From: Harriotta raleighana
Taxonomy: Eukaryota
Direction of reading: 5' to 3'
Length of the DNA stretch: 64,000 bases
Assembly: GCA_050575255.1 (NCBI GenBank)
Contig: JBNZDD010013714.1
Span: 5,749,817-5,813,816 of the forward strand
The position numbers and the translations under genes were made by a program. Positions 3,303 to 55,300 of the stretch are shown piece by piece (the first letter of the stretch is position 1; each line of letters starts with the position of its first letter). Below the pieces are notes generated by a model, which ran no database searches, was not told the origin of the DNA, and was given only the letters and a program-made list of their open reading frames with translations.

Positions 3303-6300
3303 GTGAATTGTGTTTAACTTCTCAGAGCTCTCGGACTGTTGCTATTTTTGCAAAATGCTGAATACATTATGAAAAGTAATAAATGGACAAGCTCTGAAGC
3401 CGATTCAGATCAGTGGTGTGCTGTTGCATTGTGCTGTCAGTTAATTGAAAAAATGTCATTGCTTTCTGTCGTGACACTGAGCAAAAATGCTTTGCCTCTC
3501 AGAGTACAGAGAGAAACACAGCTTGTTTCTCTGTGATTGAAAGTGGCTCAAATCCTCCTAGGCATCTGCCATTGACTTTCCGAGTCCTGGACATATGGCA
3601 CAGTAAATGATTTGTATTTACAGTACAGCCAGGCCTAGGTAACGCATTTCATAAAAGTAATGTTTTGCAACGGTGCCCTGGTTTGTATTCCCAGTTCTCT
3701 TTCACTGTGCCATGTCTTGGTATCCAGCTATTCAGGCAGCCATTATCTTTTACAAATCATTGCATCTGTTATCTTCTCAGGTTACTGTTGACAAAGGGTT
3801 TGTGATGCAACCACCTATAAACTCAGCTACTAACTGTCTGACTCATTTATCCTGCACTGGCTACTCTCATTAAATGGGGGGGAAAAAAAATTCTTTGATG
3901 GCTACTAAATCAATACAATATAACCCTTAAGCACTTAATGAGAAAGGTAACAGAAGGTATATATGCAATATCAGTGAAACCAAAACTTACTTGGGTCAAT
4001 GTGCGTGTTTTCATTTGCAGGAACTGGCATTGATTTTAACTAAACAATTAAATCTGTCATTCAGGAGTGGTGTAGCAATTGAGGGTGTGTGTGTGGGGAG
4101 AGGGTTGGTGGGGTTGCAGTGGGGGCGGGGGCACTGCATTTATTACTTAATGCAGGTGAAAAGTAGAAATTGTTTGATTGTTTTCTGGACACTTTAGAGG
4201 AACATCAATGTGACGATTGTGAAATTAATGAAGGCTTTTGGGTAGATTCAGTGAAGAGGACTGAATAAACAATAGGATTGCTTCAGAGACCTGGCTATTG
4301 TATTTACTTACTCCGAGGGTAATAACACTTAGCATCTACCCTGTGTGTCTGGAAACCTAAGATTTTAAAATTGGAATACATAAGACTTCGTGTAAGACAA
4401 TGCAAGCGCTGTGTCATTCTGCAAATACAACCTATCCTTTTGTACATTTTGAGTCATAATCTTAATGCAGTTTATGGGACATTTTGCTCAATGTTCTTTG
4501 CAATAAAATATGCTGCGTTCTAATATATGTTGCGTTATTCTAAATGCATTTTAAATGTCCTGTTCAAATTGGAATAAAACCTTTAGACGTTTTAATGAAA
4601 ATCATTTTCTGTAAGGGAAACCTGATTAAGTGTCACTAACTTCAGATCTATTTGAATAAGTAAATGTGTGTAATAACACTAAATCTATTATCCTTTGCCT
4701 TAGAAAACTAATTTTGCAAAAAATAGGCCCAACCATAATAATGTGAATTGAACCTCATTGTTCCATCCAGAGAGTGGATTAAACAATCTAGAAAAATATA
4801 TCTTCAGTCAAGCAAGTAATAGATAGATTACTGAAGTATTCAAATATATTTTTTCCATTACATACATCAGTTTTATATACCCTATTATGTAAAAAAAGTA
4901 GATATTGAGATATTCCTATTCTGTATCCAGATTTATTGTTTCAGTCACTGAGTTTTATTTTTCAATTCAATGATTTTACAATATACAGAAATGCCCAGTG
5001 AAAGACAATGGCCAATAATATCATTCACCAAATCTGTAAATTTAGAAATGTTTCTGGTATTTCATCTGTTATCAATGTAGAGTGGGCTCAAGCCCTTCTT
5101 TGTTCTTATATTATATTCTAATTTGATTCAGAAATCCTATGCAATAAGACTATAGGTAGTCAATAAAATAGGCCTGCTTTGAGGGTTGTGTTTACCATGT
5201 GCGAACAAATTTGTAGAAAGGCAATTGCTTCTGTAATCCTATTCATTGGTTGTTAATTACAGAATGAATTCCCTCTATACAGAAGTATTAACACATGGGA
5301 CGCCTTGGGACGTCCTCCTGACGTGAAACACGCTCTATAAGTGTAATTTTGTTGTTGTTGTTGTTAAAATAATCTGCAAATTAGACTCCAATATATCAGA
5401 TTACACTTTACAACACCTGACATTAAAGGTGCTCTACTCTTTGCTGCTGTTGTTGTTGAACAGAGGTCTCAACTATCTTTCATGACGAAAGAATCCTAAT
5501 CCCAATGGAAAATGCTATTTGTTCTAATACTTTAACTGACAAGAAATCCATTCAGGAATTATTTCTTATTAGTATAGGAAGATACTACATAAGAATTAGA
5601 ACAAAATCTTCAGGATGAGGTTCCTTTTATTCTCTTTTCCTTTCAATCTGGTCTCTGGGATGGGGAGGACAATTGTCCCTTTTTACTGCTTGTCTCCTTC
5701 AGACCCATGTATGAACATGTGCTTTATCTCCTCTCTCCCATTCAAACACAATGTCGAGTGTCTCCAGAGTCCATATATTTAAAACTACGAGTGTAATAAT
5801 TTAACACACTTGAATAGTAGCCAGGTACGTTACATTATAATGAATGGAAATTGCCAACTGTATGTGGAACTCTCAGTAATTTAGTTTGGGTAGTCTTGGC
5901 CTGACAATATGTTTTTGTGTATGTTAGCCAGTGAACTTGACCCCAAAAAACCAAAATGTACAGTTATATCCCCAAATTACATCAAGCATCTTAATCTCCG
6001 AAGTTAGCACTCAGAAATAATTTTGAACCCCTTGTCTTCAATGGGGTGATGATAATAACAATCTGTTTACTTTTGAAAGCAATTTTATACAATGAAATGA
6101 TAAAGTTATTTAGTGAAATCTCTGCCTTGATCGAGTTTCACTCCATCAGGTGCCGATCGACTGAAATTGTTGCACAGAAGACATAGAGGCAGAACAGGAT
6201 CAGCGTTGGTAGGGTTAGTCACTCAAGGCAGTTGAAGAGAAAAGTGCATTGGAAGAAAATTTAGGTGTTGCAGAAGAGCTTTGCAAAATGCCCTTACATA

Positions 6301-28018: not shown

Positions 28019-28270
28019 ACATTCCACACTCCAAGCCTTGGGGATGAGGAATTTGAGATTCCACCCATTACCCCACCGCCAGAATCAGACCCCACTCTGG
28101 GACTAACAGATGTGGTGTCAGCTTTTCAAGGCCTTAATGATCCACTGCCGTCACAGGGAAATGAATTCACACCCCACTTTCCTCCACAAAGCCTGGATCT
28201 GCCTTCCATCACAATATCCAGAAGTATTATGGACCAAGATGGTGGACTCCTGAACAATGGCTTGTCTGTG
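28019..28270 (+). CDS. TOX3: TOX3 exon 3 (252 nt; [25 protein letters not shown]...NNGLSV)
   Basis: Acceptor ctttccctgtctttag, donor GTG|gtaggt, 84 codons. Carries the TOX-family motif [17 protein letters not shown] and TOX3-type [15 protein letters not shown]. Confidence 0.97.
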
Positions 28271-39515: not shown

Positions 39516-39785
39516 GACCTGGGTCAGACGCAAGTTTCCCAGTACCACCATGATCCTACCATGGGCATGAGGTCTGTTGTTCACTTGACCGATGTTAATC
39601 AAACAGGAAGGATGCAACACAGTCAGCTGACTACTATAAACCAATCTCAGCTGAGTGCACAGCTGGGGTTGACTTTAGGAGGTGCTAACATGCCACACAG
39701 TTCACCCTCACCCCCTGCTAGCAAGTCCGCTACCCCATCTCCTTCCAGCTCTGTAAATGACGATGATCCTGAGGAATTCAACAGG
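39516..39785 (+). CDS. TOX3: TOX3 exon 4 (270 nt; [10 protein letters not shown]...[15 protein letters not shown]...[17 protein letters not shown]...EEFNR)
   Basis: Acceptor ttctaacgcag, donor AGG|gtatgt, 90 codons. Conserved TOX motifs. Confidence 0.97.
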
Positions 39786-40632: not shown

Positions 40633-40860
40633 GTAAGTGTTGAAAAACGAGCTGCAGGGGATTCGGGGAAAAAACCGAAGACACCAAAGAAAAAGAAGAA
40701 GAAAGATCCCAACGAACCCCAGAAGCCGGTGTCAGCCTATGCGCTGTTCTTCAGGGACACTCAAGCTGCCATTAAAGGACAAAACACAAATGCTACATTT
40801 GGAGAAGTTTCTAAAATTGTGGCTTCCATGTGGGACAGTCTGGGAGAGGAACAAAAGCAG
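40633..40860 (+). CDS. TOX3: TOX3 exon 5 (228 nt; lysine-rich NLS and first part of the HMG box)
   Basis: [76 protein letters not shown]. Acceptor ttttttcacag, donor CAG|gtaaca. Confidence 0.98.
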
Positions 40861-41275: not shown

Positions 41276-41356
41276 GTCTACAAAAGGAAAACTGAAGCTG
41301 CCAAAAAAGAATACCTAAAAGCTCTTGCTGCTTACAGAGCCAGCCTTGTTTCAAAG
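41276..41356 (+). CDS. TOX3: TOX3 exon 6 (81 nt; end of HMG box, [27 protein letters not shown])
   Basis: Acceptor ttttatctag, donor AAG|gtagga, 27 codons matching TOX HMG helix 3. Below the ORF-track size cut-off. Confidence 0.98.
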
Positions 41357-44019: not shown

Positions 44020-44681
44020 GCCGCAGCTGAATCTGCTGAAGCTCAGACCATGCGTTCTGTCCAACAGACTTTGGCGTCGACCAGCCTTTCATCATCCCTC
44101 CTTATGAATTCCCCACTCTCTCAGCATGGACCCACCTCGGCCTCAGCCCAGTCTCTTCAACAGACACTGCCGAGGGCAATAGCACCCAAGCCGCTGAGGT
44201 TGCCCTTGCAAGCCAATCAACTGGTGTCGTCGGTTAACATGGCGGCCAACATGTCATCGAACATGGTTCCCACTCCACCGTCGCCCCAGCTCAGCCCCCC
44301 CCTGCAGCCGCAGCAACATCACATGCAGCAGATGCAGCAGCAGCAGTTGCAGCACTTCCAGCAGCATCAGATGCAGCAGCAGATGCAGCAGCAGATGCAA
44401 CACCAGCAGATCCAGCAGCAGCAACAGCACCAAATCCAGCAGCAGCACCACATGCAGCACCACCAAATGCAGCAGCAGCAGCAGCAGATGCAGCAGCACA
44501 TGCAACAGCACATGCAGCAGCAGCTCCAGCAGCAGCTCCAGCAGCAGCANCAGCAGCAGCAGATGCAGCAGCAGATGCAACAGCACATGCAGCAGCAGCT
44601 CCAGCAGCAGCTCCAGCAGCAGCAGATCCAACAGCAATTACAGCAAATGCAGCTCCAGCACATGCAAAAACAGCAAATACT

Positions 44682-44720
<39 letters not shown>

Positions 44721-44904
44721 GCAACAACAACAGCAACAGCCCCCACCTCAGCACTCGCCGCCTCAGCATTCCCCTGACCCGTCCCAGTCAGTGGTGGCCA
44801 CGCAGATCACCTCCCCAATCCCCACGCGGTCAAGTCCACAGCCAGCCCAGCAGCAACAGCAATCTCCACTGCAAACCCAGGCCCAGACCCAAATATTGCC
44901 ACAG
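44020..44904 (+). CDS. TOX3: TOX3 exon 7 (885 nt as assembled; [21 protein letters not shown]..., Q/H-rich tract, ...QTQILPQ). Unspliced read-through adds VSKHSN* to 44925
   Basis: Acceptor ctcttccctag. TOX3-diagnostic [29 protein letters not shown] and QITSPIP. Phase-0 donor CAG|gtcagt at 44905. Confidence 0.96.
44305..44739 (+). repeat. CAG/CAA-rich coding repeat (polyQ with interspersed M/L/I/H); ends in 19 uninterrupted Gln (44683-44739) followed by PPP
   Basis: Read directly from exon 7. Contains one N at 44550. Confidence 0.95.
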
Positions 44905-47900
44905 GTCAGTAAGCATTCAAATTAGGAAACTTTACCAGCCACATATGACCTAATCCTGGTACTGGTAATATCACCAATCAGGGGTGACTGGTGTTGGTAA
45001 ATCTGGTGTATTCATTAATGATCTAAAAATAATAATAATATTCCTTGCGTTTGATATAGCACTTTTAGAGCACGTCTTCCAGATATCTCAAAGTGTTTTG
45101 TTTGTTCTGAATGAAAAACAGTTTTACTCTGCAATATTCTGCAGTGCCTTGAGAAAGCATGATCCCAATGTAGATTTCCTGCTCCACCCCCCAAAAAAAA
45201 TCATTACACTTTCAATAAAGTTATCGATGTCAATGTGAAACAGAGATATTTATTTCTGTTCTGCCCTGTGTATAAAACACATTTTGTACAACGATGACAT
45301 CTCCTTCATCTTTCTTTATAATCTAGTTCTTTGAAGAAACTGTTCAAAAACAATTAAGCTATTTGTTTGAATAAAAGATGCAACGTTAAAGAAATGAGTG
45401 GTAAATGGGTGCAGTTATATTTAATTTAACTTTATATATAACTTTGTGCTTGGTACAGTAGCTTAAACGTTGTTGAAACATCTCAAAGCACTTCGCAAGA
45501 TTTTACTGTGAAGTGTAGTGATTGTGCATTTATAAACAAATGTGCCAGGCAATTTGCACACAGCAATATATCATCAACAACCATAAGAAACATTTAATTA
45601 ACATAGTACATTTATCCAAAAGTTCCACATAAACTATACTGCACTTCTTTTCTATTCTTAGTGATGGAAATTCTATTGGGAAACCATAAGAAATCCTGCT
45701 AAGAAATATAGCAAATTAAATACTATTTTTCCAAACTCACCTGCAACTGCATTCCACGAACAAATTTGGTGAAACAAATTTGTTTTCCAGTATGGTATTT
45801 AGTTTGTTAAATGCTTTGCGAATGTTAAGTAGAACAATTAAATTAATACAAAAGCATTCAGAAAACAATTAGACAAACACCACAGGTGAAGGAGGGTATG
45901 GGGAATGAGCAAGGATTTGGGATTAGGATGGATTGAATCTTGGAGGTGCAAACATTGACATGTTGTTGCGTTTTGAATTACTTTGTGCCTGGTAAAGGAG
46001 TTGATAAAGCAATTGAAACTGGAATCTGGATTCACATTCTCCGCTCTTAATCACTCTGACTAAGGACTGAGGATAGTGCTGCGCAAGCTCCCTGAATTTT
46101 TAATGTTATTAAAGAACAGGGTGACTGACTTGTGGAGAACATTAAAACTCTTAATGGCCATCAAATGAATTGCCTGAGAACATTTAATGATGACGTGTTT
46201 TTGTTTTTCAAAATAAATTGTAAAGTAGTTTCATACCACAGGCCTGAGCATCAATTCAATTCAGTATTTGTTTAGAGTATGGAACTCAGCCAAATTGAAT
46301 CCTCAGTAAAAAGTGTAGTAATAGATAAGTGGTTTACATCATAAACTATATGTTTTACTGTATGTTCTTTAAGCACTTGAAATTACAACGATCCACCTTC
46401 TTTCATTGAGCTCTGCCAACAGAATTTGTTGTTTTCAGAACATTCCCCATTGTGCTGCCATGGTCACAAAGCATTCTAATGCAGTTCTCTGTAATCAAAA
46501 TTGCTCTCAAAACTGTGAGAAGTACTCTGCCCGGCGTGCACACTGATGTAATGGAAAGAATATGAGTTCAAAGGCTGTGTAGCATGCTAAAAGAAATAAT
46601 ATTCATTGAACTACTTCTGAATTAGAACGGATTGTATAGATTGGTACGAGTTTTGTATTAGGAATCCTTAACATGCTTAACGTTCCTCACCAGATGTATC
46701 AGGAATTTCTGTGCTACTGGTGTGGGGGAAAAAAAGATACTGAACACCTTTGTGAGCACACAGATGGGATTAGCAGTTCACGTTATTTCATTTCTCATCC
46801 AAGTGCTTTAAAAATGAGGCTGTAGTAATGTTTTCTGGAACAGCATGGCTGCCGTCCCCAGCTGTCTCCAGTGATTAATTACAGCATCTGTCCTGTCAGA
46901 AGCTATAGTGAAGAAGTCTGGTTAAAATTGCAAATTAGCACTGGCAACAACCTTAAACTGCTGATGATAAAATGAAAATTAAAAACAGCAAGTGTCATGC
47001 ATGACTGGAATCCCAATACACACTGGGGCACATGCTAGAGTATGTGTCCATAGCTACCAGCTACTAGATGGAAACAGAAATTAAAATAATGAGCACTCAG
47101 GAAATAGCAGGTATTGTGTAGAGGCTGGATTACACGTCTCATTGATAAAGAAACAGAGATTTCTCCTTTGCTGTGCAACTGTTCCGTGTTTTGATCCTTG
47201 TGTACAAATATTTAATAACGTGGTAGTGTGTATCTGATTAAATTCTTAAACTCATGCTTAGAATAAATTACGTTGGAAAGGACAAAGCTTGCTATATGGA
47301 AATGTTCTTCTCCAATCAGCATCTCTTTTGCCATCAGAAAATTGATACGAGGTTAGCAGTTTTGCAATATAAAGATTTTTTTTTGACATTTACTATTTTG
47401 TCCAAGTAAATTTTTGACATTGCTGTGATCATATTTTATTTTATTTTGGGGCCTGTTCCAGAAATTAAAGTTGATGTGAATTATTCTACCCTGGGGAAAT
47501 TAAGTCCAGTGTAAAATTATGATGTGATACCTCGCCTGCACGGAAAAAAATCTTTGTTCTTTCATTAGATATTCATTGTGCAAATAGCTAATAGTTACAA
47601 ATTGTACAGTCACATTAAAAAAAACATTGAATGAGCTTCAATGTTTTTTAACTCATTGAGCCTTAAATGATCCCATTTGTTTTCATTGAGTTCAGTGAGA
47701 GAGCACAGTAGGCCCTTTCCCATGTTTGCAGAGAGCAGTATCATCATTCCAGCACAAAACAAGTTCAGTTCCCATTAAATCAGCATTGACATAAGTTGAA
47801 AGAACACAAAAAAGTTTTAATTATAGTTGGCACCAGGTCATTAATCACCAAGTTAGAGTACAACAGCCTCGATGACTGTAAGCAGCATAATTTCAGTCAA

Positions 47901-49380: not shown

Positions 49381-49556
49381 ACCTTTTCACCGTCTCTACC
49401 CGAAGTCCAGCCTGTCATCACCTCTCCCCTACCAGCTCCTGTGGGTACTACCACTCCAATACGATGCATGAGGACTGGCTGCACAAATCCACCAATCCAG
49501 AGTGTGGAGTGGGATAATGAATACTGTAGCAGCGGGTGTGTAGTTAACCACTGCAG
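49381..49556 (+). CDS. TOX3: TOX3 putative exon 8 (176 nt): [58 protein letters not shown](R), a TOX4-like Cys-rich module
   Basis: Acceptor ttttaactacttccag, stop-free phase-0 frame, donor CAG|gtaata (phase 2). C-x4-C-x14-C-x3-C-x3-H-C pattern like the TOX4 C-terminus. Not in the ORF track. Confidence 0.9.
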
Positions 49557-51240
49557 GTAATATTTCACACATACCTGTTTTACCAGATCAATTACATTCA
49601 GATTAAATAAAGATATACATTTTTGAAGGCACACTTAGCTGACAGAAACAAACAAAAATATCAAATCAAATCTACCGCATATTTTTAGCTAAAAATCTCT
49701 CATTCACAAAGTTTTTAACTGCAGTGGTATCTCATGCAATTCAAGTTTTATTTGATGGAAACCTGTTTTAAAGGCAGAGATGGGCTTGGTATTACTTTTA
49801 CATTGTCTTGGAACACATTAACATACATTGTGATCTTAATGTACCGATTTCATTTTAGTACGTGTAATTTCAACCATCAATCACTGTCAGTTTAAAACTG
49901 ATCAAATATTGATTATTCCATCAGGCCTTGTAATATAGAAACACATATACTATATACACTGCATCTTCTGAATGTAAAAAATATTTTTTCTCATTAATAA
50001 AAGCCTGAACATATTGGATGAGTGTGTTTTTTAAAAAAAATTGTTCTATGGAATGGATTCTTAGTGAATTCTAAAAATATGGAAGGTTATGGGTCTTATT
50101 GAAAAATAAAATTATTTGCTGATATTTCCACAGTTGAGTCACTTTTTGTGAATTTCACATTTCTTAACATAAGCAAATCTGGTAGATTTTGAAAATGTTA
50201 AGAAAAAATTCAGTCCTTTAATGCATATAGTAAAGAGTGTTGTGTTTCTAATCCATTGTATATGCAGAATCACTCTGCAGATATGTATCTGTGTACAAGT
50301 CTTTCATTCTGACTTGGTCTTAACATGATCATTAGTTCATTGTGAAATTCACCGTTGTCATATTGTAAATAGATCAGAAAATAAAAGGTTAATAGAATCT
50401 ACAAATATCAACCTGACGTGTTTTGAATTATGTACCTGTGCTGCACATTTAGAGTTTGGTATTTCCTGCTTGCCCCATTCTACATGATCTGTTTCAAGAG
50501 TAAAGGGTGTAATGTTAGGTTTGATGATTTTCAGTTAGTGGTGGAGCATGAAATGTGGATGTTGCAATTACCAAAAACCGGAAATAAGAATCAGAATCAA
50601 TGCTATGCTTTTCTGGTTTTAACAGTGTCAGTTTGTGATGTTTATTGTGAATAGAGGTTCCCAGTTACAGTTCAGATCTACTTTGAAACATTATACATGA
50701 TGTGTTTACAGTCCAACTCCAATGTTATTACTGCTGATTAGATCTTATTTGCCAGTTGAGTACCATAATACCAATGCGTGACCATTTTATTCAGCAATTA
50801 TAAAAGTGCCAGCATGATGGGATGTTATTTCTGCTAGAAAATATTGATATATATTCATGGATTTTAAATTCTAATGCAAGGAAAGGGATTGTGGTAAATC
50901 CAAAAGCAAATCACCAGGTGTGCATTCGAACTTAAATTTTAAGTCTACCATAAACTTTTCTTTCAAGCTTAATTAAATTAAAACATGCAGGCCTAGCCTT
51001 GAAAAGGTTAAGATGCTTGTTATCACTAAAATCTAATTTCAATCTATTGCTCAAGTGACCTTTTCTTTCTCGTGTTGTGGTCCAGATATATTGGCAGAGA
51101 GAAAAAAAAGAATAGTTTAATTATCTAACTGGCTTTGGAATAGGTGCTATAATGCCTAAGGGCCTGTAATAATATTTATGGAATGTTTCATTCAGATTAA
51201 ATGTAATTGCAATAAGGTTAAAATCTTGTATCTTTTACAG

Positions 51241-51301
51241 GGATGTCTTCATGGCGTGGGTTGTCTCTCGTAATCAGAGCAATGCTGCTCCTGTGAAGTG
51301 A
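51241..51301 (+). CDS. TOX3: TOX3 putative terminal coding exon 9: (R)DVFMAWVVSRNQSNAAPVK*
   Basis: Acceptor tatcttttacag. The first G completes the split AG|G Arg codon. Resembles the TOX4 end [20 protein letters not shown] as recalled. TGA at 51299-51301. Confidence 0.9.
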
Positions 51302-52390
51302 AGATTTGCCATCGATGTTTTGTAGCCAAAACGCAGCATTTGTCAGACGCACTGCCAAGAAGATGTTCTCAAAGGCAGTCTGACATGCTTTGTTTCCTTG
51401 TAACTACATGGGCACCAACTTCAGAAGGCTTTCCAATGACAGGCAGTACAGACTTTCTTTAGGCCCACCTGCCATTCTGCCAGTGCCTGGAGAGCTAGCC
51501 ATTTTACATTGTGTAATGTAGCTTCAGATGATTATTTTGTTTGACATGAACTTAAAGGGCATGGCTTTTAGTAAATGACAAGCCTCTGCATGATTGCTGA
51601 AGACTGTGAGAAGATACAGATGGAAAAAAAACTACTTTTTTGTGACAGTGATGTCATTGTGGCCAGTCAAGGATTAAGGTACTGAGTGAAACATAATATT
51701 TAAATGGAATGCTAACTACATTTTTTTAATAATAGCTCAGATTACTTTGGAGTGGCTTTAAAGGGGATGGTTTTATGTTCCCAGAAATTGTTCTCATTCT
51801 ACATAATGTACACAATGACCAAGTGTAAGAACTTTGGTTTCTTGGATGTAATTATTTTTTTAAGTTCTTAAGAAACCCAGGTTCATTATGTATTCAAATA
51901 GTTGTGTGGCATCCATATGTTAATACTTTTATCATTGTTAGTTTCATGCATTTGTTCTGCAACCAAAAAGAGAGTTATTTTACTATGTACTGTACTGTAG
52001 AAATTGCTTTTGTATGGCAATGTCTTAGCATAGTGTGCTCAATTTAACTGTGCCTCCTTTAAAGGAGAATTCTGTGTATAAGGTCAAATGCTTTTAAAAA
52101 GCTCCTCTTTAATGCAGTAGCCAAGGTAGAGATGGCTAGTAAAATAGCCTGCAAACCAAAATCAATAATGTTTAATATTTTTACTTTTGTCTGTATTTAA
52201 TTTTTTGTATTAAAATGTGGTCTTATTTAAGGTTTAATTATTGGAAAATGATAGCTGACATTTAACAGATCCATCTTTCAGTAAAACCAATGTGTTCCTT
52301 GATTCAGAAATTCAAGTTTTCTTTCTGTATTGTAACTGATCTTTAAATTTACTTATTTTGGCTGTAATAAAAAGTGACATGGAAATACTT
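51302..52390 (+). other. TOX3: Probable 3' UTR of the long TOX3 isoform, poly(A) signal AATAAA at 52366-52371 (ATTAAA at 52209-52214)
   Basis: AT-rich kilobase with no recognisable repeats after the stop codon, ending in a canonical hexamer. The cleavage site is inferred. Confidence 0.55.
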
Positions 52391-55300
52391 TTGAGACAGT
52401 ATCATGAACCATTTGAAAGATAAATTTCCCATTGAAGTTGACATTTTTCCACATTATATGCAGATAGTACTTCAGGGTATTAGAATGACTGATGTGTCAC
52501 GACTTACAAGGACAACTGAATTCACCGCATTATATCGGAGACGTAGAATCCAGACATCCAAGGTCAAGACAACAACAAAATTACATTTATAGAACATCTT
52601 TCACATCGGGAGGATGTCCCAAGGTGCTGAAAGAAAGTCCATTTTGAATTGCGAATCTAACTTTGAACTTTTTAATTTCATAGAATTGGATGTTTTCCTG
52701 TTGACTAAGAATCCTGAAACATTCGGATTGAGGTTCAGGTTAGTGTATGGTTATGATCCCACATTGCCAAAGGCAGTTGGTATAAAGCCGATTGGAACTT
52801 CATCCCATATGTATTCACATTGGTGTCCATTGGCGTTAGTTGACTGAACTACTGTGTTACAGAAAGGCTAAATTGAAATCTTTGTATGTTATCTCCGCAG
52901 GTGGTCTACCCGCATCTTCACCTTTGAAGATCTATATATTTGCTCTCTCAGATCTCTCTGTTCCTTGAGATTGGCAATTAGATGAACCAGTTGCATTATG
53001 CTTGAAACCAATTTCATTTAATCAGGCTGCTCTCCAGCGTTTGACATTTTTATTTGGCCTTGAAAGGCTTGATCTTCGCTTCTTAGGCATCTTTATTCTT
53101 TAAGATTAAGAAAAGGTACTATGGAATTCATTAATAATGATCATTGCATTTGATATAGCGCTTTTCACATCTTCTAGATGTCTCAAAGCACTTTACAGAA
53201 TATACTATATCAGCATCCCTTGTTCACATATCTGCACACATATCCTTTTGGGAAGACACTTGGTTGGGAGGATTCCTGGTTGGGAGGAGTGGAAGGTTGG
53301 ACTCCCAGTGCCTTGAGACATCTTACGGATGTGAAAGGTGCTCTATAAATGGAATTTGTTGTTGTAGTTGACTCCTTTTTGGAGTCCATACATGTGTGAT
53401 GAGCTTGTTTAGGTCACATTAGGAGATTTCCCCCCCACCACCAAAATATTCTCATGACATTCCCCCATGCAAGACCTTTTTGATGAAAAAATCGTGTCTC
53501 TACATCAAGTGATTATTGCATTATTGACAGGGAGTCAAAACAGACACAGAGACATTTCATCTTTATTAATACTGTATAAGTAAATATACCATTTAAGGCA
53601 TACCTAAACTGTTTCTTACCCAGAAGCAGATCCAGCAGTGCACTTTTGTCATATCTAGTCAACCCTGTGAAGATTAAAGTGTTTCATAATTTCCAACTCT
53701 TATTAGTGTTGAAATTTTTTTAGAATGTTTCTAAACTTGATCCACACGGACTCTTCCTGAACTTCATCTTCTATACTGCCTTCCTTACTATTCCTCTGAT
53801 CTTATCCTTAATTAATAAACCCACTACTTCTCCTTTTGCTCATATTAATCTGTCTTGAAAATTCTGTAACTGGCAATATCTGGTTTTCATATCCTTCCTT
53901 GTCTGAAGGAAGCCAACTTTCTGTCAAATGTATGATATTTTATCTTTCAATTTTAATTTGTGCCTCTAGTTCCCTAACTTTATTCTGAATGCTTTGACCA
54001 TTTACATATGTGAGTGTTGACATCCAGGCTACCTGACAGCTGGGCAGTGCAGTGGAAAAAATGACTCCTTGCCAACATTGCAAAACTATTTGTTGAGGAG
54101 GTCCCAAGCAAGTTCTTGTGTATACTGCAGGTGACCATAGAGTGACCTGTTCTGGTAGGGAGCTTGTCCACCAAACAATCAAACAAGGCAGGAAATGGTG
54201 GCGTTATATTATGGCAACATGAACCATATTGCCTCGGAAAACTTTGCAGGCAGACTGAACTCAATTTGAAAAATGAACTGAGGTAAAATATTGATATTAC
54301 TGTCTAGTGGGACCAGACCATTTGTCTGTGCATTGGAGAAAGTTGAAATTAATAATGGGATAAAAAGAAAAGTCCATGATAGAACAGAGAATAAAATAGT
54401 ACAGTACATTGAAAATGTACAAGCAGTCGAGCAACATCTGAAAGAACAAATCGATTAATATTTAGGATATGACATCAGGTGTATTCCAATGAGGGGATCA
54501 CACTTGAACTGTTAACCCATCCTCTTAAAATCCAAACAACCTGCTCTGCATTGCCAACATTTAAGAACTGGAAATGTGCCTGCATATGATCAGGTGGTCT
54601 ATATAATATTGCGTGTTTTCCTTTCGCATAATGGTTGATAAAGTGTCTAGGTTATAAATGGAGTCTTTGCAGTAAATCACAACAACATTTGTCTCCTCAT
54701 GCACTGCAGGCTTGTTTCTCAGGATATATATCATGTGACAGCTTCTGAGATGAACTTGCTACAAAGTTTTAGGATATCTCGATACGGTTAAAAGTATTAT
54801 TTGGTGGGTGAAATACAATCAAGATTCAGATTTCTCACGCTTTTGGCTCCCACATAACTTAACAGCTTAAACTCCCACATGGATTCAGTTGTTCAATACA
54901 GGATTAGTGGGAGTTCTGTTGTCTTATTCTATAGGGGGTAAAAGATAGGCCAGAGCATAGTAGCCCATCGCAGCTCAGAATGTTTTGAACTGTTCAAGTC
55001 CGATTCTTATATGAAGCTTTCAAGCCTTGTCATTCATCTTACCATTAAAAAGACAGTGGTTTGACTGGTACTCCCCCCCCCCTCCTTTGCTAAGCAAGAG
55101 CTTGCTAACAGTCCGTGTCACTTGCATGAAAGATGCAGACGCCACGCCTATTGTCAACAGGACTATTGTCTGCTAATTGTTCTTGCCATCTCCCAATGCT
55201 TGGCTCATGCCATTGGATCTGGGCTGTTAAGATTTTTGCAAGTAGGTGGTTATAGATTTTGCTGCAACAGCAGCTGGGTAGAGCTAACAGTATTCAGCTG

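Follow-up and report, generated by a model that had tools for sequence, protein, structure and literature searches.

The 64-kb stretch of Harriotta raleighana DNA analysed here (the window) carries a TOX3 gene with two exons beyond the polyQ exon. These exons, 8 and 9, probably encode the ancestral Tox C-terminal domain (CTD): to judge from sequence, the form that includes them would bind zinc, dock on PNUTS and recruit PP1-PNUTS-WDR82.

All parts of the gene lie on the forward strand; exon 1 was not found within the window. Coding exon 2 (20157..20222) is followed by GC, not GT, and with a donor at 20223-20230 that reads GCAAGT a GC-AG intron is likely. Exon 3 (28019..28270) encodes the acidic N-terminal region and matches C. 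milii TOX3 at 97.6%, exon 4 spans 39516..39785, exon 5 (40633..40860) encodes a basic stretch and the first part of the HMG box, and exon 6 (41276..41356) encodes the end of the box. Within exon 5 the HMG box has GQNTNA in place of the GQNPNA of the other cartilaginous-fish TOX3 rows, either a substitution confined to this gene or an error in sequencing. Exon 7 (44020..44904) is the polyQ exon and ends at a phase-0 donor (CAG/GTCAGT). Exon 8 (49381..49556, 176 nt) has a CAG acceptor and a phase-2 donor (CAG/GTAATA), and encodes a Pro-rich linker of 27 aa followed by the four-Cys zinc loop of a TOX4-type CTD. The coding part of exon 9 (51241..51301) follows a CAG acceptor, runs for 61 nt up to TGA, and by homology encodes the second half of the PNUTS-binding helix. 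Joined, exons 2-9 form a 672-aa frame with 0 internal stops, to which exons 8 and 9 (phases 0, then 2) contribute a stop-free tail of 78 aa. The earlier note had proposed these two exons from their canonical splice sites, compatible phases and open frame, and all of this is borne out. When scored with a textbook consensus matrix and ranked against every GT of the window, the donors of exons 7 and 8 fall at the 99.4 and 98.9 percentiles, comparable to the remaining TOX3 donors (98.5-99.4). Elsewhere in the window, positions 59-935 and 3318-4194 are identical 877-base stretches, 3259 bases apart with N at 2381, which probably reflect duplication in the assembly or tandem copying in the very recent past.

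Three 3' ends can be read in the window: 7-8-9, 7-9 and read-through of exon 7. If exon 8 is skipped, exon 9 is read in another frame for 10 aa, up to a stop at 51271-51273. If the exon-7 donor is left unused, six codons are added before a stop (44905..44925), at the position of the VSIF end of bony-vertebrate TOX3; AATAAA occurs past this stop at 45214 and 45370, as consensus matches only. For the long form, a 3' UTR at 51302..52400 is likely, with an AATAAA at 52366 downstream of exon 9, again as a consensus match only.

The identity of the gene was assessed by phylogeny and by synteny. The window protein and C. milii TOX3 share 99% identity over 355 columns. In the main tree (372 columns, 23 rows, tail and polyQ excluded), 13 TOX3 rows split from 4 TOX4 rows at 100/98, and the window gene falls with the TOX3 rows and in neither the TOX4 nor the TOX/TOX2 clade. 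The AU test rejects a joining of the five cartilaginous-fish genes with the TOX4 clade (p 0.021), whereas moving the window gene alone to TOX4 falls short of rejection (p 0.059); TOX3 monophyly is not rejected (p 0.27). When TOX and TOX2 of this genome are included, in a shorter alignment, TOX+TOX2 (100/98) and TOX4 (97/98) are recovered; there, cartilaginous-fish TOX3 fails to resolve. The contig that holds the window (at 5.75-5.81 Mb) also carries FTO at 5.33 Mb and, at 5.49 Mb, a gene of the RB family, 0.26-0.43 Mb ahead of the window; the RB_A match is named RBL2 from its position only. The human block holds FTO, RBL2, CHD9, SALL1 and TOX3 together (a table row in PMC3436827). CHD9 and SALL1 were not located, and the search for BRK gave 0 matches on its contig.

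Four TOX HMG loci occur in this genome: the window and the contigs C13722, C13721 and C2698. The last is a GC-rich contig of 1246 bases with a single TOX4-like exon, TOX4-like by elimination and unplaced by the tree; the 3' exons of TOX4 were not found in this genome. That the tail resembles TOX4 while the separate TOX4-like gene amounts to one exon in the assembly would, together with the AU value for the window gene by itself, fit a gene that is TOX4, or a TOX3 that acquired its end through gene conversion with TOX4 or through the copying of TOX4 exons. Against this stand the near-identity to C. milii TOX3, the 100/98 split, the rejection of the five-gene placement and the contig neighbours matching the human TOX3 block. 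In addition, a shark TOX4-like protein is just 51% identical to exon 8. Such an origin is therefore very improbable. Tree and FTO synteny together support the window gene as the TOX3 orthologue, not TOX4, in agreement with the TOX3-type body described previously; a position within the TOX4 clade, which would have spoken against it, is not what the tree returns.

The tail is assigned to the zinc/PNUTS domain of TOX4 exon by exon. Exon 8 alone matches PDB 9ci7_B, the human TOX4 CTD, with E 4.8e-12 and exon 9 alone with E 0.0066. Because each exon finds this structure separately and the Cys-Trp-Tyr motif occurs a single time across the six frames of the window, a chance match is not a tenable explanation. 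No Pfam family covers the tail. In human TOX4, according to PMC12278311, residues 571-596 form the zinc loop (ligands C572, C577, C592 and C596), residues 597-612 form a helix binding PNUTS helices 1 and 3, and the interaction has a KD of 0.3 nM and requires zinc. Residues 601-621, which correspond to exon 9 of the window TOX3, are needed for co-IP of PP1-alpha (PMC8975821). In the gapless alignment to human TOX4, the zinc ligands are 4/4 identical with their spacing kept, as are all eight hydrophobic PNUTS contacts (W587, Y591, V597, V598, V604, F605, W608 and V609). Three of the five polar contacts (K585, D586, D588, R612, N613) are identical, the exceptions being D586E and K585V, so that 11/13 of the named contact residues agree overall. 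The earlier note had called the tail a Cys/His module of TOX4 type: the TOX4 type stands on these ligands and contacts, whereas the published ligands are four Cys and not His. Its guess that the module binds zinc has a published counterpart in TOX4 (PMC12278311). A long-form tail that binds one zinc through four Cys is likely by homology, as is docking of its helix on the PNUTS N-terminal domain. A search for PNUTS in this genome with PF08711 gave 9 matches among 12 candidates, none of them PNUTS-like.

Two substitutions, K585V and E595G, may weaken PNUTS binding. K585 is present in only 3/60 other complete tails, the comparison set being those that pass an ungapped filter among 150 listed representatives. 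Gly at position 595 is found in the window and in C. milii and in 0/60 other tails; E595 is not among the named contacts and sits at the modelled helix start. The structural comparison uses the C. milii orthologue, modelled with AlphaFold2 from 59 sequences, which has 50/51 CTD residues as in the window. The model reaches pLDDT 94-97 over residues 621-660 and predicts a helix at 642-663. Foldseek aligns it to 9ci7_B with TM 0.78 by target length and E 2.8e-4 (rmsd 3.8 over 53 columns), and the predicted loop-plus-long-helix fold is matched. Beside the four Cys, a His and a Cys at 49548-49553 (equivalents of human H600 and C601) are invariant in 59/59 aligned tails. In the available part of PMC12278311 neither is named as a zinc ligand, and C601 is mutated to Ser in the crystal construct; the pair may have a second metal site or a redox role, overlooked so far.

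The earlier note described exons 8 and 9 as hidden. They are indeed missing from the program-made list of open reading frames, but they are present in public TOX3 models of cartilaginous fishes in RefSeq and UniRef, including XP_007887638.1 (C. milii) and XP_078399090.1. Exon 8 matches proteins named TOX3 isoform X1 from Cetorhinus (88%) and Hypanus (85%). Among the 39 cartilaginous-fish TOX3 records listed (a sample that includes 15/24 and 15/19 members of two large clusters), a full tail occurs in 18 records and 10/16 species, exon-8 skipping (7-9, ending LHGVGCLS) in 12 records and 11/16 species, and read-through of the exon-7 donor in 9 records and 9/16 species. The full-tail models are automatic and could be steered by TOX4 protein alignments. 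The exon-8-skipping end, in turn, is not derivable from TOX4 protein homology, and real junction reads therefore probably underlie it. A word search with the tail alone returned just two shark/ray clusters; since it missed TOX4 too, its blank elsewhere is no evidence.

These counts also bear on how much the long form matters. The tail could be real and folded while the long form is a minor isoform, kept in reserve or competing for the one site at which TOX4 binds PNUTS, and not a recruiter that has targets of its own. Two of the three modelled 3' ends are without the domain, exon-8 skipping is found in one species more than the full tail among the records listed, and bony vertebrates manage without a TOX3 tail. 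This minor role is nonetheless unlikely: between the window and the basking shark 45/51 CTD residues and 21/27 linker residues are identical, and the CTD identity points to steady purifying selection; moreover, the full tail is isoform X1 in most cartilaginous-fish models, even if the X1 label often merely denotes the longest isoform.

The distribution of the tail indicates that it is old. It is complete in TOX4 of lungfish, paddlefish and birds, in Tox proteins of Myxine and Petromyzon, and in Saccoglossus, and a partial shark TOX4-like protein (P0151) carries the zinc loop. Because Tox proteins of an invertebrate, a hagfish and a lamprey have it, the tail is ancestral, in line with the earlier note, which had the ancestral jawed-vertebrate TOX3 keeping it. 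In 64/150 listed representatives, the sequence stops or becomes unrelated directly after the His-Cys pair, as would be expected if the exon 8/9 intron were old and shared. No TOX3-specific motifs were found among 150 listed of 227 representative matches; this blank is weak because that set has no shark TOX3 among its representatives either.

Unlike the window gene, bony-vertebrate TOX3 contains some part of the tail motif in 0/184 records (the best 120 of 1686 matches plus cluster members), and a loss of the tail from TOX3 in bony vertebrates is likely on this protein comparison. The sample consists of 113 records from the best 120 matches and 71 cluster members, all protein models, and spans reedfish, bichir, sturgeon, paddlefish, gar, tarpon, coelacanth, lungfish, amphibians, reptiles, birds and mammals, with Megalops as its sole teleost. 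The loss, presented previously as mammalian, is accordingly older. In 153 of the same 184 records the protein ends in the VSIF-type read-through peptide. In mammals a stop in the polyQ exon is not universal: 17 records, all mammalian, splice on from the exon-7 point to a short unrelated exon.

This short exon downstream of exon 7 is read in frames one base apart in mammals and in the duck: at offset +1 only 1/31 positions is incompatible, compared with 10-19 at other offsets. On this comparison, P0039, P0066, P0067 and related records represent conserved DNA whose protein frame is not conserved. As a candidate remnant of exon 8 or 9, the mammalian exon found no support, its best profile scores in the window lying below the shuffled mean (19.0 vs 20.1; 17.9 vs 18.5).

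Bony vertebrates might still retain exons 8 and 9 unannotated, in which case the tail was not lost when bony fishes arose. The evidence there consists of protein models only, the exon-7 splice point remains in use in the 17 mammalian records, and a HeLa complexome lists PPP1R10/TOX3/WDR82 (PMC3494656). Yet a similar pipeline detects the tail in sharks and the motif in none of the bony records sampled, and the mammalian downstream exon has no match after exon 7 in the window above shuffles but fits the exon of the duck with a shifted frame; retention is accordingly quite improbable. The HeLa listing misfits a tail-less human TOX3, unless perhaps its peptides are shared with TOX4: of the tryptic peptides from human TOX3 isoform 2, 4/18 recur unchanged in TOX4 of birds and lungfish.

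Under the preferred reading, in which the tail is the ancestral docking domain, the choice at the exon-7 donor would act as the switch. Splicing 7-8-9 would yield a protein that has, besides the HMG box and polyQ, a zinc-folded tail for binding PNUTS; this long form would bring PP1 and WDR82 to TOX3-bound chromatin and tune Pol II phosphorylation as described for TOX4. Exon-8 skipping or read-through would instead give the tail-less HMG/polyQ coactivator known from mammals. By parsimony, the tail would already have been present in a single pre-vertebrate Tox. Once the genome had duplicated in vertebrates, TOX and TOX2 would have lost the helix exon before the split of cartilaginous and bony fishes, while TOX4 would have retained the tail throughout and TOX3 optionally, in cartilaginous fishes; in stem bony fishes the TOX3 tail would have been lost and the read-through end fixed. 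Cartilaginous-fish TOX3 as a splice-switchable PP1-PNUTS-WDR82 subunit, with bony-vertebrate TOX3, human included, as the frozen read-through form, is a tentative proposal to which we give slightly less than even chances. A stepwise loss of PP1 docking, in TOX and TOX2 first and TOX3 later, would, if true, explain why general regulation of Pol II in mammals falls to TOX4 alone.

Neither the domain nor the gene is new, and the exons are in public models. The evolutionary and functional reading of the TOX3 tail was not found in print; what is described here is a known domain that has been retained, is already annotated in databases and plausibly comes under a splice switch. In the literature covered (subscription papers being mostly outside its scope), no report was found of a TOX3 C-terminal zinc/PNUTS domain or of its loss. 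PMC12278311 describes the PNUTS surface as so far used by Tox4 only, and TOX3 is unmentioned in its main text. PMC13012119 compares Tox3 from catshark to mouse, and the terms "C-terminal", "Tox4" and "PP1" are absent from its main text; its Fig. S7 alignment, which includes catshark Tox3, is shown as a picture in which the tail may be visible. The accessible portions of PMC13710973, PMC12166427, PMC10247741 and PMC13052469 contain nothing on the tail. If a second paralogue in vertebrates offers the whole docking domain as a splice option, it would be a natural test of what PP1 recruitment does to a TOX protein, and the finding would also date the point from which TOX3, a gene of the cerebellum and of breast cancer, was a coactivator only.

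The window gene can be set beside its relatives in turn. In the same genome, TOX and TOX2 have a homologous penultimate exon whose donor is in phase 2, as in the window TOX3, but in joins predicted from splice sites they continue into a different last exon that ends LYLT and is without the PNUTS helix. TOX (C13722:6255413-6255556) keeps the first three zinc-loop Cys; in TOX2 (C13721:1211620-1211939) just the final two Cys and the His-Cys pair remain. As read from these exons, the two genes display complementary decay of one domain. The TOX2 exons are tandem-doubled (C13721:1202761-1204783 and 1211620-1211939), the second pair lying beside N, and are likely assembly artefacts.

Cartilaginous-fish TOX3 (C. 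milii, Cetorhinus, Hypanus, Mobula, Amblyraja and others) shares with the window the gene, the two exons and the three 3' ends. In C. milii, 76/78 tail residues are identical (26/27 in the linker and 50/51 in the CTD), with small substitutions only. Bony-vertebrate TOX3 is the orthologue, in which the N-terminus, HMG box and polyQ exon are common to both and the protein ends at the exon-7 point; PMC13012119 and PMC13710973 describe it as a neuronal coactivator of CREB/CBP and Atoh1. The tail itself compares with the TOX4 CTD of the PTW/PP1 phosphatase, as seen in the PNUTS:Tox4 complex (PDB 9CI7), with which the window shares, gaplessly, the C-x4-C-x14-C-x3-C zinc loop and the helix. Between human TOX4 571-613 and the window, 32/43 residues are identical (counted by hand, with the C601S of the construct taken as Cys), and K585, D586 and E595 are replaced by Val, Glu and Gly. 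In contrast to TOX4, the window gene joins this tail to a TOX3 body that includes a long polyQ exon, and has it as one of three modelled ends.
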